The notes under the pieces are model-generated. The model did not search any database and had not been told where the DNA came from. It saw nothing but the letters and a program-made list of their open reading frames with translations. This document shows, one piece after another, positions 9,470-32,792 of a DNA stretch of 40,343 bases; positions within the stretch are counted from its first letter, which is position 1, and every line of letters starts with the position of its first letter. Both the position numbers and the translations under genes were made by a program. The stretch is from a virus (lineage: Duplodnaviria; Heunggongvirae; Uroviricota; Caudoviricetes): the IMG/VR virus record IMGVR_UViG_2718218360_000013; one strand, given 5' to 3'.

Positions 9470-10583
9470 TGAATTTAATCCCCTGTTTTTTCATCTGTGC
9501 CCGCACGAAGGCGTCCACGTCACCCGCATTTCCGCTTCCGCTGTTTCCCGGCTCTGCCGGAACAATAAAGCCGTCACGGGGTGCCAGAATCAGACGGGTG
9601 GTTTCGCCGTGATTTGCATCCAGCGAAAACTCCACCTGACAGACAAGAAGATCACGCTCTTCCACTCCGGTGCGGGGAGCCGTGACAGCCGTCAGCAGGT
9701 TGATATCCCACAACTGGCCGTTCTCCCGAAACCAGTGCCGCACGGTGGCTGTCAGGCGCACAGAGCGGGCAACCGCCCGGCGCATTTCCCGGACAGCCCT
9801 CTGGCGTGCACCGTCTGCATCAACAGCATGATCCGCCAGCACAATTTTCGGTCTGTAACGGTGGATGGCACTGTCTGTCACCGTACCAACGGGTGCGGCC
9901 AGCGTTCCGGCTGTCAGTGCATCCCCGGCATGACCACCACCACGCCCGTGCCCCCGTACACGGTATTCACTGTGGCGCAGACGGTGATCCACGTTGTGAT
10001 CCAAATCCAGCAGATTTTCGCCCAGCGTCAGCGTGTCGCCACGCTGACTGCCGGCCTGAGTGAAAACCAGTTCACCGGCGGCATTACTGGTTACCAGGAC
10101 GCCTCTGTGTCTCGCGGCCCGTGTCAGCGCATCTGCCACGGTTTCTGAGTTTTCCAGTGTGAAGGTGGAAAAGGGCCGGGCTGCCGTTGCATCATTTACC
10201 TGCCAGCGCACCGTGACCCCGAACGGAGCACACAAATCTGAAGCAATGTGCTCCAGCGTGCGGTTCCTCCACTGGCTGCCCGGATGAATGGCTGAACAGT
10301 CCACCAGGTCACCGGTTTTATCCCGTCCGCTGAGCGTGATCTGAAAACGCGTGGCGCTGATGCGCTGCCGGACCTGATCCAGCCAGCCAGTGATCACAGG
10401 CTGACCGTCAATGCGCAATTCCAGAGACTGACCGGCACGGACGGATGACGGAAGGCGTACACCGGGCATCATTACCCCCAGTTCAAAGGAGCCCGCCAGA
10501 TGTTCAAGAGAGCGACGAACACTCACCGTCAGCCAGCCGGAAAAAATCTCACCGCCCAGATACAGTTCAACCCTGCTGCTCAC
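9459..10583 (-). CDS. Mu P (gp44)-like baseplate hub protein
   Basis: 374 aa; position after the N-like gene. Confidence 0.7.
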   Translation of the reverse strand: MSSRVELYLGGEIFSGWLTVSVRRSLEHLAGSFELGVMMPGVRLPSSVRAGQSLELRIDGQPVITGWLDQVRQRISATRFQITLSGRDKTGDLVDCSAIHPGSQWRNRTLEHIASDLCAPFGVTVRWQVNDATAARPFSTFTLENSETVADALTRAARHRGVLVTSNAAGELVFTQAGSQRGDTLTLGENLLDLDHNVDHRLRHSEYRVRGHGRGGGHAGDALTAGTLAAPVGTVTDSAIHRYRPKIVLADHAVDADGARQRAVREMRRAVARSVRLTATVRHWFRENGQLWDINLLTAVTAPRTGVEERDLLVCQVEFSLDANHGETTRLILAPRDGFIVPAEPGNSGSGNAGDVDAFVRAQMKKQGIKFNDE

Positions 10584-28144: not shown

Positions 28145-28570
28145 TCAGAAAAGTGGCGGTTGTGTTCTTGCCAGATGCAGACGGCGCTGTTCACGTATGA
28201 CGGTATAAATCTGGGTTTCTGACATCCGGTAATGGCGGCGAAGGGATTCAATTTTCTCGCCCCGGTCCCAGCGCGAAAATATCTCATTGTTTCGCAGCTC
28301 GGCAAAGAGAGATTCCCCGACCGGCAGGTAATAACCCCGTCCGCCCATATAGGCTGCCTGAGCCGCAGCCACCTTGCGTGCCAGTTTGCCGGCCAGTACC
28401 GGCTCAATCCCCTGACGCTGAAGTTCTGCGCCGGTGACTTCAACCAGTTCTGACAGGGTCCGCGGCCAGTTCTTTTTGAGAACATCATCAGGGATGTCAT
28501 CAAGGCGGTCGATAAGGGCGTGCAGTTGCTCACTGTCACCACCAAACATGCTCATCTGAGTTTCTGCCAT
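28145..28570 (-). CDS. Mor/C-family transcriptional activator
   Basis: C-terminal HTH RRHYRMSETQIYTVIREQRRL resembles Mu Mor/C; lies between gemA and the lysis genes. Confidence 0.7.
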   Translation of the reverse strand: MAETQMSMFGGDSEQLHALIDRLDDIPDDVLKKNWPRTLSELVEVTGAELQRQGIEPVLAGKLARKVAAAQAAYMGGRGYYLPVGESLFAELRNNEIFSRWDRGEKIESLRRHYRMSETQIYTVIREQRRLHLARTQPPLF

Positions 28571-28611: not shown

Positions 28612-28635
28612 AAATCCCGCGTTGTGGCGGGATTT
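28612..28635 (-). terminator. Terminator-like hairpin between gemA and the Mor/C gene
   Basis: Perfect 9-bp stem AAATCCCGC-GTTGTG-GCGGGATTT; minus-strand transcript continues UAUUUUAAAC. Confidence 0.45.
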
Positions 28636-28639
28636 GGGG

Positions 28640-29149
28640 TTAACGGGGAAGTGATTTTTCATACTGCCTGCAAACGGCGTCATACCCCATCAGCGTGCGT
28701 TCGGGCATTCCCATCGCGGCCAGCATTTTGCGGCGGTGCCATCGCTTGAGACGCTCCAGCACATCTGAGGCCAGGGCGGGGTGTTGCTCCAGCCACTGCC
28801 AGTTTGCCACACCTTCGCCGCCGTTTTGCGCGGCCGTCTGCGATTTCACCCAGCGGTTAAGGGCGGTTTCCGCACCATCAGAGATAAAGCCCTGCCGGTG
28901 CATCACCTTCCAGATGGCGCGAATTTTAGCGGTCACCGTACCCGGTTTTAAGGCCCGGTTAACCGGGTTCTGACGCACTTTAAAACCGCGTTTTTTGAAA
29001 ACATCCAGCACGCGGGATAACTCATCCGGTGACATATCCCGGCAGCTGGTTTTGCCGGTGACCGCCAGTAGTACGGATGTGTAGGTTTCATCATCCAGGG
29101 CAAGCTCGCGTTTTGCCACATGAATGGCAGATATCAGTTTCCCTCTCAT
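28640..29149 (-). CDS. gemA: GemA (Mu gp16)-like regulatory protein
   Basis: MRGKLISAIHVAKRELALDDETYTSVLL... matches the conserved N-terminus of Mu gp16-like proteins. Confidence 0.7.
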   Translation of the reverse strand: MRGKLISAIHVAKRELALDDETYTSVLLAVTGKTSCRDMSPDELSRVLDVFKKRGFKVRQNPVNRALKPGTVTAKIRAIWKVMHRQGFISDGAETALNRWVKSQTAAQNGGEGVANWQWLEQHPALASDVLERLKRWHRRKMLAAMGMPERTLMGYDAVCRQYEKSLPR

Positions 29150-29442
29150 GCTGTATCAACACTCCTGCGGATATGATAGGTATTATTTTCCCGATCGAGC
29201 TGAACCCGATACTCCGGAGGAATCACAAAAATATTAAAACCATCATCAGTTTTTATTCTTGAGTAGCATTCCCCCTTATGATATCTGGCCAGTGCATTAA
29301 TCAGAGAAGTCGCAGCCTGCCCAATCAGGTATTTTTTATGAAAAATACTGATAACTTTCCGGCACAGCCATCGTGTAATGACGAATGCACCGAAAAAGGA
29401 TGTGATATATAAATACCAGAACAACTGCGAACTACTGTCCAT
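29146..29442 (-). CDS. Hypothetical membrane protein (98 aa), low-GC cassette
   Basis: N-terminal TM helix LFWYLYITSFFGAFVITRWL; AT-rich codons. Confidence 0.45.
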   Translation of the reverse strand: MDSSSQLFWYLYITSFFGAFVITRWLCRKVISIFHKKYLIGQAATSLINALARYHKGECYSRIKTDDGFNIFVIPPEYRVQLDRENNTYHIRRSVDTA

Positions 29443-29629
29443 TATCTTTCTCCTTATTCAGTCTTCTGCGGCATTCGGCACAGTCATCAGGGCTTTCAAA
29501 TGTATCCGGCTCGCGATTATGAGCCAGATATAACCACCGTCCACATATACTGATATTTTCGCCTGTTTTAAAAAAATGATGCTTCCTGGCCATTAGTGGC
29601 CGCGCCCATCCAGCGGGTAGACTATTCAT
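29432..29629 (-). CDS. Hypothetical small Cys-containing protein (65 aa), low-GC cassette
   Basis: ICGRW ... CAEC spacing suggests a metal-binding knuckle; AT-rich. Confidence 0.4.
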   Translation of the reverse strand: MNSLPAGWARPLMARKHHFFKTGENISICGRWLYLAHNREPDTFESPDDCAECRRRLNKEKDNGQ

Positions 29630-29957
29630 TTGCTTTATCCTCCATGCTGGACAGAATCATATGTATTAATGTCGGGCGTGGAGATATACGCATTTCATTA
29701 AGCGTCTGAAGGGCAGCAACAGCTGCCTGTTTATCGGTGCCTTTGGCAATTTCAGCAAGAGAATGCACAATCCATAATGGGCTTAACGCTACGGCTGAAT
29801 GCAGAATCATGTCATCCATAATAATTTCTGGCATATCCCGTTTGTCACATTCTTTATCCATAAAAGAAACGATTTTTTCTGCATCTTCCGGTTTCATGCC
29901 TCCGGCGATGAGAATTTTACGATATTCATAAGACGATCTTAATTCAATACTCATCAT
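29622..29957 (-). CDS. Hypothetical protein (111 aa), low-GC cassette
   Basis: ORF with overlapping start/stop coupling to neighbours; no recognisable motif. Confidence 0.45.
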   Translation of the reverse strand: MMSIELRSSYEYRKILIAGGMKPEDAEKIVSFMDKECDKRDMPEIIMDDMILHSAVALSPLWIVHSLAEIAKGTDKQAAVAALQTLNEMRISPRPTLIHMILSSMEDKANE

Positions 29958-29969
29958 TCACCTGCCTGT

Positions 29970-30362
29970 TTAATCAGTTTCCAGTGCTTTGCTACGGGCA
30001 ACAGCCTCACACTCAAAAAATACCGACTCCGGCACACGCTCCTTTAATTCACGAACAAGAAAATCATTAACGAGTTCATGACGTCTTATATTTCTTTCCT
30101 TTTCCTCCTGGCGCAATACAGCAAGGCGGTATTCAACAGTCCGGCGTTGTTTCTGAAAGACAGCCAGTGCTTTTCTGGCAGAGTTACGCAATGTATCATC
30201 GCCACAGGGTTCGTATTCAAGCTGAAATTTAATCTCTTCAATGGTTTCTTTTATTTTTGCCAGCAAGCTAAGACAGTCGCTGATTGTCTTCAGTTTTTCA
30301 TTATCAATATAACTTCTCACGCATTCACCTCCCGTCATTCCGGTAAAGCTGAAATATGGCAC
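29970..30362 (-). CDS. Hypothetical coiled-coil protein (130 aa), low-GC cassette
   Basis: Charged helical repeats (EEIKFQLEYE, RLAVLRQEEKERNIRRHEL). Confidence 0.45.
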   Translation of the reverse strand: MPYFSFTGMTGGECVRSYIDNEKLKTISDCLSLLAKIKETIEEIKFQLEYEPCGDDTLRNSARKALAVFQKQRRTVEYRLAVLRQEEKERNIRRHELVNDFLVRELKERVPESVFFECEAVARSKALETD

Positions 30363-30646
30363 CAGTGCGTCACCTGTCCGTCCTCATCTTCAAGGCAGGC
30401 TCCGGTTTCTTCATCAATAAAAAAGCCTTCATACCCCATATGGCCGATGCGCAGTTCCTGTTGGTCACCATACTGAACAATCAGCACGACAGCCTCCATA
30501 TCAGGCGGGAAAGCATCATTCAGTGAATGCCAGGGATAACCGCGCAAATCCCCGAAATAAACACCGGTCAGCGTTCCGCCACAGACCGGCATTCCGACGG
30601 CACACACAAGGGGTTCATCTGATTCAACAAATAATGTCGTTATCAT
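30335..30646 (-). CDS. Hypothetical protein (103 aa)
   Basis: ORF in the early accessory operon. Confidence 0.45.
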   Translation of the reverse strand: MITTLFVESDEPLVCAVGMPVCGGTLTGVYFGDLRGYPWHSLNDAFPPDMEAVVLIVQYGDQQELRIGHMGYEGFFIDEETGACLEDEDGQVTHWCHISALPE

Positions 30647-31194
30647 GGCATTAATTCCCGTAATACAACATCTTCGGCAGTCCGACGACGGTGATAAATA
30701 AAACTCACCGTGCCCTCGGATAATTCAAATTTCTCGCCGATTTCCCTAAAGGTAAGACGCCGTGGTGATTCAGCATCCCGTAATTCACGAATAAGACGAA
30801 CATCATCGTCAGGTATGCGGGTGAAGGGCAGCAACTCTCCGTATTTTTTCATGCTTACGCCAATATATCGCGCCCGATTGTGGACAGAATCCCGGTCTCG
30901 CCCCAGATATTCTCCTATTTGCTTACCGGTCATTGTTCTGGCATTTTTTCGGATAAATTTATCTTCATCAGGTTTAAATCTGAGGCGTTTGCATTTGAGC
31001 AACTCCGGGTAAGTACCGCGTAATAAAACAATCCGGTTATGTACACCCCAGAAACTTCTTTTTATCCTGACAGCAATATCCTTAACCGGGGTGGATGGAT
31101 AAAGCGCAATCAGCAGCGCATCTTCTTCAGGTGTCCATGCGCGAACATGAGCGGGTGCACGGCCTTTTCTCCCCATGGGTTGTAATATCATCAT
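30643..31194 (-). CDS. Putative DNA-binding protein with up to three HTH-like segments
   Basis: WTPEEDALLIALY (Myb/SANT-like), TGKQIGEYLGRDRDSVHNRARYIG, LTFREIGEKFELSEGTVSFIYHRR. Confidence 0.5.
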   Translation of the reverse strand: MMILQPMGRKGRAPAHVRAWTPEEDALLIALYPSTPVKDIAVRIKRSFWGVHNRIVLLRGTYPELLKCKRLRFKPDEDKFIRKNARTMTGKQIGEYLGRDRDSVHNRARYIGVSMKKYGELLPFTRIPDDDVRLIRELRDAESPRRLTFREIGEKFELSEGTVSFIYHRRRTAEDVVLRELMP

Positions 31195-32249: not shown

Positions 32250-32792
32250 TTATTCCTCCGTCAGCGCCACATATTCAGAATGTTTAATCTCCTGGCATTC
32301 TTCAGGAATACCCCCTTTTATTTCCCTGCCATAAGCGCCTACTTTAAACACCACGCACAGGGCATCACGGGAGAGCGACGGGGTCCACCAGGAGTCCATG
32401 TTAAACATGGAGGGGATTCTCATTACCCCCAGCTTTTCACAGAGCCAGACAAGGAAATCAGGACGCTTTCTTAACTCGCGTTCAGCGGCTTCAATCATTG
32501 CGGCAATCGCCGGTCCTTCAGGGCATGACTCATCAGGTCTGGCAATAAAGCACGGTCCGTCCCCGATAAAAGCCACATCATCGCGCTTACGCCAGCCCGC
32601 AGGCAGAGCACCAGAAAAATAAAACTCACTGATTACGTCCATGGCAAACGGCTTTAAGCGCAATCCGGCAGCGCCTGTATTTTTCAGTAATGCCCGAAGA
32701 ATACTGTTGCGTAGCGGTAAAACAGTCTGTTGATATTTGGTGAAATATTTATTTGTCTGCACACGGTCTAATTTGAAATAAAAATATGCCAT
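32250..32792 (-). CDS. Hypothetical protein (180 aa)
   Basis: ORF immediately downstream of gam. Confidence 0.45.
   Translation of the reverse strand: MAYFYFKLDRVQTNKYFTKYQQTVLPLRNSILRALLKNTGAAGLRLKPFAMDVISEFYFSGALPAGWRKRDDVAFIGDGPCFIARPDESCPEGPAIAAMIEAAERELRKRPDFLVWLCEKLGVMRIPSMFNMDSWWTPSLSRDALCVVFKVGAYGREIKGGIPEECQEIKHSEYVALTEE

Follow-up and report, generated by a model that had tools for sequence, protein, structure and literature searches.

Four small accessory genes in the variable gp12-gemA slot of an Sp18-family Mu-like prophage of Escherichia coli

Introduction

In phage Mu, the semi-essential early region between B/kil and gemA-mor is made up of small, packed open reading frames (ORFs), mostly of unknown function, that are AT-richer than gemA, and the Mu early operon is repressed in lysogens. 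Among other Mu-like elements, Sp18 of Escherichia coli O157:H7 Sakai is predicted to be intact (PMC2669165), and two ORFs of phage SfMu, ORF11 and ORF14, have been called unique to that phage (PMC4406740). Here, we analyzed a DNA stretch of 40,343 nucleotides (IMG/VR record IMGVR_UViG_2718218360_000013; the whole stretch is hereafter the window), which is a minus-strand Mu-like prophage of the Sp18 family from Shiga-toxigenic E. coli (STEC), and we focus on four small genes directly upstream of its gemA homologue. These genes share the position and strand of the Mu region between gp12 and gemA; the slot that holds them differs from that of Mu in having five to six genes instead of three and in beginning with a helix-turn-helix (HTH) regulator, which Mu lacks. 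We consider it likely that they are four independent accessory early genes in a hypervariable gp12-gemA slot, co-read with the early lytic operon, each probably acting singly on a host target.

Results

Four genes between gp12 and gemA

The initial annotation of the window, made from its letters and ORF translations, described a low-GC cassette at 29146-30362 encoding a 98-amino acid (aa) transmembrane (TM) protein, a 65-aa cysteine-containing protein, a 111-aa protein, and a 130-aa coiled-coil protein, none with an assignable motif. All four minus-strand ORFs are present at these positions, two of them with corrected starts, and the predicted features of the proteins agree with this description, as detailed below:

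29146..29442, minus strand: p98, 98 aa, predicted single-pass membrane protein; phrog_17269
29432..29629, minus strand: p65, 65 aa, small basic protein with a putative zinc site; phrog_2358
29622..29957, minus strand: p111, 111 aa (p110 from the second methionine at 29954), acidic all-helical protein; phrog_1988
29970..30320, minus strand: p116, predicted helical hairpin or coiled coil; phrog_6158; the maximal ORF reaches 30362 (130 aa)

The RefSeq/PGAP annotation starts the third gene at its second methionine (110 aa) and the fourth at a GTG at 30320 (116 aa). This GTG is preceded by a GGGAGGTGA ribosome-binding site, and the phrog_6158 profile aligns only from residue 15 of the 130-aa ORF; the true starts likely give proteins of 110 and 116 aa. 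The four genes match four different PHROGs over their full length (E values of 1e-68 for p98, 4e-34 for p65, 6e-45 for p111, and 4e-56 for p116), each of which is labelled as unknown function. Several RefSeq genomes of E. coli, including 2014C-3011 and several O157:H7 and O111:H8 strains, match the whole interval at 100% identity, and in them all four genes are annotated as “hypothetical protein.”

The minus-strand early genes run in the order transposase, B-type ATPase, small ORFs, gam, p180, gp11, gp12, p183, p103, p116, p110, p65, p98, gemA, Mor/C-family gene, lysozyme. Synteny with Mu covers gam, gp11, gp12, and then gemA, with 67% identity to Mu for the gp11 homologue, 55% for gp12, and 43% for GemA. 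The four genes thus occupy the place of Mu-like semi-essential early accessory genes: they follow the transposition genes/gam, precede gemA-mor, and share the strand of both.

Slot content in sister prophages

We compared the slot, from the HTH gene to gemA, in sister prophages of E. coli complete genomes. The anchors of the slot in the window, and a fifth small gene that belongs to the same slot, are as follows:

28640..29149, minus strand: gemA homologue, conserved downstream anchor of the slot (Pfam GemA, E value 2e-30; 43% identity to Mu GemA)
30643..31194, minus strand: p183, HTH DNA-binding protein, conserved upstream anchor of the variable slot
30335..30646, minus strand: p103, small, very acidic protein (phrog_6925), in the same variable slot and outside the four-ORF interval

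The p183 gene was found in all sister prophages examined; its product has weak Pfam Sigma70_r4/HTH matches and a match to phrog_323, “transcriptional regulator, D5-like” (E value 6e-58). Between these anchors, we found seven gene contents, listed from the HTH side; p98a and p98b are two alleles that are identical over the first ~30 aa, ~30% identical and still alignable over the remainder, and ~50% identical overall:

Window: p103, p116, p110, p65, p98a
Strain 121: p103, p116, p110, p65, p98b
Sakai Sp18 and 2012C-4502: 61-aa ORF, p110, p65, p98b
DLI.5a: 61-aa ORF, p110, p65, p98a
M18: p103-like, p116-like, p98a, with p111 and most of p65 deleted
JE86-ST05: p103-like, p116, truncated p111 variant, opposite-strand DUF2513 gene
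JNEC-KY203: p103 and a p98-like 103-aa ORF only, with two additional genes separating gemA from the Mor/C gene

Some breakpoints coincide with gene borders, and others fall within p98, p65, and p111. Megablast against E. coli complete genomes placed the window's type of gemA at 271 places in 231 genomes, p111 at 248 places, p65 at 241, p116 at 135, and the C-terminal part of p98a at 67, although this collection is rich in clonal STEC, such that sampling shapes the counts as much as biology. A further relative, the “Mu-like phage” inside a Stx2c phage record (LC727881), is 96.5% identical to the window over the interval, carries the other p98 allele, and has ~385 bp between its p103 and HTH genes (~10048-10433) that are not in the window. 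In JE86-ST05, the opposite-strand DUF2513 gene (2065-2475, plus strand, of the extracted locus) stands in for p65 and p98, while the extra genes of JNEC-KY203 lie at 1992-2649 of the extracted locus, one of them on the opposite strand. The surroundings of gemA also take cargo, then, that could be expressed from the prophage.

Outside the Sp18 lineage, the four genes were never together in the phage matches and loci that we examined, and an alignment-based scan found none of them within 5 kb of 24 GemA loci from other species. Each gene has its own set of relatives and neighbors. The most widespread is p65, which matched 185 phage records by tblastn; 153 of these are named Pseudomonas phage, the sampled ones being PB1-like, and the others include Wifcevirus and Shigella phage Sf11. 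A different Mu-like prophage, from Salmonella, has a p65 homologue by itself immediately upstream of GemA, and other homologues are found in early arrays of non-Mu prophages, beside Lar, Ead/Ea22, and ParB-HTH genes, or beside Cro, Q-like, and RNase T genes. Homologues of p116 come from HK97-like temperate phages (Fraca, of the Hendrixvirinae, and SaltyDalty), where they are located just upstream of xis-int, and from two prophages: a Mu-like one of Salmonella, in which the gene follows gp12, and one of Serratia, which carries it at its end. In the phage search, p111 had homologues outside the lineage only in SfMu and Yersinia Mu-like phages (34% identity, same slot), and p98 had a single match, which was the other allele.

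Because their distributions and neighbors are separate and sister prophages carry different subsets, we conclude that the four genes are not one cassette, as the initial annotation had proposed. The alternative is a single co-functional module (anti-defence, toxin-like, or exclusion) that was acquired as a unit. That the genes are adjacent, on one strand, translationally coupled, and low in GC would fit such a module, as would a single DNA block (query positions 189-824) that takes in p65, p111, and the N-terminal portion of p98 in most Sp18-family prophages of E. coli; even within this lineage, however, the members come apart. M18 retains p98 and p116 without p111 and most of p65, JE86-ST05 retains p116 and part of p111 without p65 and p98, and Sakai Sp18 is without p116. 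No flanking direct or inverted repeats or mobile-element signatures of note were found around the interval, nor a promoter or terminator belonging to the four genes themselves. Together with the lack of joint occurrence outside the lineage, this makes the module unlikely. Being absent or replaced in related, apparently intact phages, the four genes appear to be dispensable; they are not universal core genes.

Transcription signals and the membrane protein p98

The junctions along the slot are tight. The p103 stop and the first in-frame ATG of the 130-aa ORF share an ATGA overlap, as do the p98 stop and the gemA start; p116 and p111 are separated by a 12-nt gap, p111 and p65 overlap by 8 nt, and p65 and p98 by 11 nt. 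Each of the four genes is preceded by a Shine-Dalgarno-like sequence. A consensus scan of 28.0-33.6 kb found six promoter-like sites compared to 7.3 in shuffled sequence, so there is no excess by this measure, and no Rfam family was found in the interval. The clearest terminator-like structure of the scanned region follows gemA:

28612..28635, minus strand: terminator-like hairpin just after gemA, 9-bp stem with 5 GC pairs, then TTATTTT

This hairpin likely ends the transcription unit that holds the four genes. With no excess of promoter-like sites, no flanking repeats, and overlapping start and stop codons, the four genes are probably on the early lytic transcript and, by analogy with the repressed early operon of Mu, would be silent in the lysogen.

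The p98 protein is predicted to be a single-pass membrane protein with a TM segment at about residues 7-25, which are strongly membrane-prone (Wimley-White octanol sum of -13 kcal/mol) and followed by basic residues, and a C-terminal domain of ~65 aa. Based on the positive-inside rule, its orientation would be N-out, C-in, with the protein anchored in the inner membrane and its rapidly diverging C-terminal domain facing the cytoplasm. Credible relatives of p98 numbered only about four when 1.84 billion representatives were searched exhaustively with HMMER. Matches in several stretches of long proteins look like low-complexity noise and were set aside.

Small prophage membrane proteins often mediate exclusion, and the two divergent C-terminal alleles of p98 are what arms-race proteins would show. 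We therefore weighed whether any of the genes, and p98 in particular, might be a defence or superinfection-exclusion factor expressed during lysogeny, for which the opposite-strand cargo near the slot (DUF2513 in JE86-ST05 and the extra genes in JNEC-KY203) offers some precedent. The p98 gene, however, is on the strand of the early operon, overlaps both p65 and gemA, and has no promoter-like site above chance; the Mu early operon is silent in lysogens, and none of the genes has a PADLOC match. We regard this explanation as quite unlikely, and superinfection exclusion in the lysogen is disfavored because the genes are inside the early lytic transcription unit without an excess of promoter-like sites.

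Base composition of the slot

The interval is AT-richer than its flanks, with 42.2% GC over 1217 bp compared to a window mean of 53.4% (standard deviation 4.9 for equal-length windows), and only 1.5% of equal-length windows are as low or lower. GC at third codon positions is 0.36-0.41 in the four genes versus 0.63-0.64 in gemA and lysozyme, and the AT-rich runs quoted in the initial annotation are found at 29227-29241 and 29250-29263. Other Mu-like phages have a comparable dip: GC is 0.455-0.48 in gp13-gp54 of Mu versus 0.553 in its gemA, 0.457 in the SfMu slot versus 0.54 in the flank, and 0.43 in the slot of a Salmonella Mu-like prophage versus 0.52-0.53 in the flanks. The slot of the window has the deepest dip among the phages examined. 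Since the slots of Mu, SfMu, and the Salmonella prophage are also AT-richer than their flanks, we read the dip as the mark of a conserved accessory slot with turnover of its content; it is not special to the phage in the window and seems to be only partly a sign of recent import. Low GC had been taken to suggest separate acquisition. That claim is borne out insofar as slot content differs between relatives, which fits exchange by recombination, but base composition lends it less weight given the dip in Mu, SfMu, and Salmonella.

Predicted properties of p65, p110, and p116

The p65 protein is basic (isoelectric point [pI] 8.6), and its AlphaFold2 (AF2) model (mean predicted local distance difference test [pLDDT] score of 76) consists of short strands and a C-terminal helix. 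His18, Cys29, Cys50, and Cys53 are conserved from the E. coli sequences to the PB1-like, Sf11, and Wifcevirus homologues and, with a single CxxC knuckle, may form a zinc site. A fold search of BFVD returned solely uncharacterized PB1-like phage proteins, and a PDB profile search gave chance-level matches only. The PB1-like homologue is an unannotated 69-aa ORF, seen in Pseudomonas phage Victoria (OR805296) at 2483-2692 of the extracted locus. An annotated 280-aa coding sequence, Victoria_0091, overlaps this ORF in another frame, and its start is probably set too far upstream. We had also considered p65 as the N-terminal domain of a 280-aa PB1-like protein and rejected this, given the difference in frame; three seemingly distant p65 matches proved to be frameshifted E. 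coli copies. Mu gp13 is not homologous to p65 but is of similar type: it has 60 aa and four CxxC motifs (CPTC, CPHC, CNHC, and CMNC) and is probably a double zinc-binding mini-protein.

The p110 protein is acidic (pI 5.2), with ~75 conserved N-terminal residues and ~35 C-terminal aa that vary among E. coli copies. The p111 profile matched the designed helical repeat DHR14 in the PDB (E value 1.6e-8, residues 62-108), which we take to reflect a HEAT-like helical-repeat character of the C-terminal half and not homology. The p116 model (pLDDT 86) has helices at 13-35, 42-95, and 98-115, which predicts a long alpha-helical hairpin or coiled coil. Its fold search gave >10,000 generic helical matches and nothing specific, and its PDB profile search only chance-level ones.

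Searches for known families

Pfam, NCBIfam, PADLOC, and PDB sequence searches gave no match for any of the four proteins, in agreement with the lack of an assignable motif noted in the initial annotation. In PADLOC-DB, no defence-system profile matched at E <0.01, and single-sequence PDB searches returned chance-level matches only. Likewise, in a comparison with PDB entries, made without a dedicated library of anti-defence profiles, we found no sequence or fold likeness to solved anti-defence proteins (Acr, Ocr/Ard, Tad, Gad, Acb, and others). As for toxin-antitoxin systems, there is no Pfam or NCBIfam toxin or antitoxin domain, no promoter of the genes' own, and no conserved pairing across phages. 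Word-indexed homologue searches recovered only close enterobacterial relatives, and we found no functional study of the four genes in the literature.

Could the four genes be gp13, gp14, and gp54 of the Mu early core in strongly diverged form? The gp12-gemA position is the same, sizes are similar, and Mu gp13 is also small and Cys-rich. Even so, tblastn found no similarity between these Mu proteins and any of the four, profile probabilities were <1%, and SfMu has its p111 homologue (SfMu_14, 34% identical) in addition to gene-13 and gene-15 ORFs with the size and position of Mu gp13 and gp14. We therefore judge divergence from the Mu genes to be very unlikely.

Selection on the four genes

Compared to sister prophages, the ratio of nonsynonymous to synonymous substitution rates (dN/dS) is 0.05-0.25 for p65, 0.07-0.16 for p110, and 0.15-0.27 for p116, the same range as for gemA, gp11, and gp12. 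We take all four ORFs to be real genes, with purifying selection (dN/dS 0.05-0.27) on p65, p110, and p116. The case for p98 is the weakest of the four, with very few relatives and a dN/dS of 0.45-0.55 based on very few substitutions. The lack of family annotation and the scarcity of p98 relatives might point to ORFs without function, either gene remnants or chance products of AT-rich filler, but this is extremely unlikely given these ratios, the homologues in distant phages, the ribosome-binding sites and coupled junctions of all four, and AF2 models that are confident to moderately confident.

Neighboring features of the prophage

The slot gene p103 encodes a protein with a pI of 4.05, 18 Asp and Glu versus 2 Lys and Arg, and 4 Cys, a composition that recalls DNA-mimic anti-restriction proteins; Pfam, NCBIfam, and PADLOC gave no match for it. 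Sakai Sp18, 2012C-4502, and DLI.5a lack both p103 and p116. Farther upstream, p180 (32250-32792, minus strand), between gam and gp11, has no Mu homologue and is missing from DLI.5a and JE86-ST05.

Downstream of gemA, the hairpin at 28612-28635 parts gemA from a gene at 28145-28570 (minus strand), the sole Mor/C-family regulator between gemA and lysozyme, with 39% identity to Mu C and 27% to Mu Mor. Lysozyme follows directly; in Mu, this stretch comprises mor, four small genes, and C. This phage family may thus have a shortened middle/late regulatory cascade.

Two further regions lie toward the ends of the window. At ~1000-4200, from com/mom to a gin-like invertase, there are DUF826, DUF1378, and DUF6645 genes and an opposite-strand ORF, in part with low GC (0.38-0.47). 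Mu has no such cargo at this position, and the cargo is of a type associated with lambdoid prophages. At the other end, identity with 2014C-3011 stops at 39142, in what looks like the repressor-side prophage end. The flank (39143-40343) contains an Rfam 5_ureB_sRNA match at 39915-40193 on the plus strand (86.5 bits, E value 3e-21), so this prophage copy seems to be inserted beside a urease gene cluster, a different site from that in the reference genome 2014C-3011.

Discussion

As independent accessory genes, the four would be transcribed only from the early lytic promoter, and their products would appear upon infection or induction but be absent from the lysogen. Position and analogy suggest that each protein would act alone, as a host-takeover or counter-defence factor with a target in the host. 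The p65 protein could be a zinc-stabilized His-Cys3 mini-domain; as phages of E. coli, Salmonella, and Pseudomonas all carry it, its binding target would be a macromolecule that many hosts share. The p110 protein may serve as a HEAT-like helical-repeat adaptor for protein binding, and p116 may be an oligomerizing helical hairpin.

Several observations weigh against this interpretation. The promoter scan was a crude consensus search that could miss a non-canonical internal promoter, and the scanned region has nine terminator-like sites versus a shuffled mean of 5.8, some of them within the interval. Further, p65 and p111 are together in ~90% of E. coli Sp18-family copies, which makes a functional link between the two possible, although linkage in a closely related, heavily sampled STEC lineage would give the same pattern. 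The role in host takeover or counter-defence is argued from position and analogy, and the fold searches yielded nothing specific.

If the proteins do have host targets, searches for new host-takeover or counter-defence factors would have a well-defined starting point in the gp12-gemA slot, and p65 would be the most general lead, as it is carried by Mu-like, lambdoid, PB1-like (Pseudomonas), and Wifcevirus phages. It is possible, if on balance doubtful, that at least one of the four is the founding member of an uncharacterized family of phage proteins that inhibit a host defence or a core host process, with p65 as the best candidate and the slot as a minable hotspot; the slot would then be comparable to known accessory hotspots of other phages. 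In itself, the interval is variable accessory DNA of an ordinary kind in an established prophage family, with genes that are already in databases as hypothetical proteins. Our result mainly tidies this picture: the four genes are an uncharacterized set within a known kind of region, and comparative evidence does not support a joint four-gene mechanism.

Among the closest described elements is Sakai Sp18 (ECs_4957, ECs_4958, and ECs_4959), in which p110 and p65 are 99% identical to the window at the DNA level and are followed by the same gemA, Mor/C-family gene, and lysozyme. It differs from the window in having the other p98 allele (50% protein identity) and the 61-aa ORF ECs_5772 in place of p103 and p116. 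SfMu resembles the window in two genes: SfMu_14 corresponds to p111 in the same slot, and SfMu_11 is 40% identical to p180 of the window. The two ORFs described as unique to SfMu are thus both represented by homologues in the prophage studied here. Unlike the window, SfMu has retained gp13 and gp14 of the Mu type on either side of ORF14 and lacks homologues of p65, p98, and p116.

Lambdoid early accessory regions of the ea/exo-xis type share p116 homologues with the window, just upstream of xis-int in Hendrixvirinae, one of which, SaltyDalty, has it near a Lar-like gene and an antirepressor gene. They also include a p65 homologue beside Lar and Ead/Ea22, which fits a set of interchangeable small early genes. 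Their backbone and regulation differ from those of the window, and we found no homology to named lambda ea/exo-xis proteins. Finally, the morons of Hendrix and colleagues are extra genes with deviant base composition and patchy presence among relatives, and classical morons each bring a promoter and a terminator of their own and are often expressed in the prophage state. The four genes share the deviant composition and patchy presence of morons, but they sit within the early operon without signals of their own.

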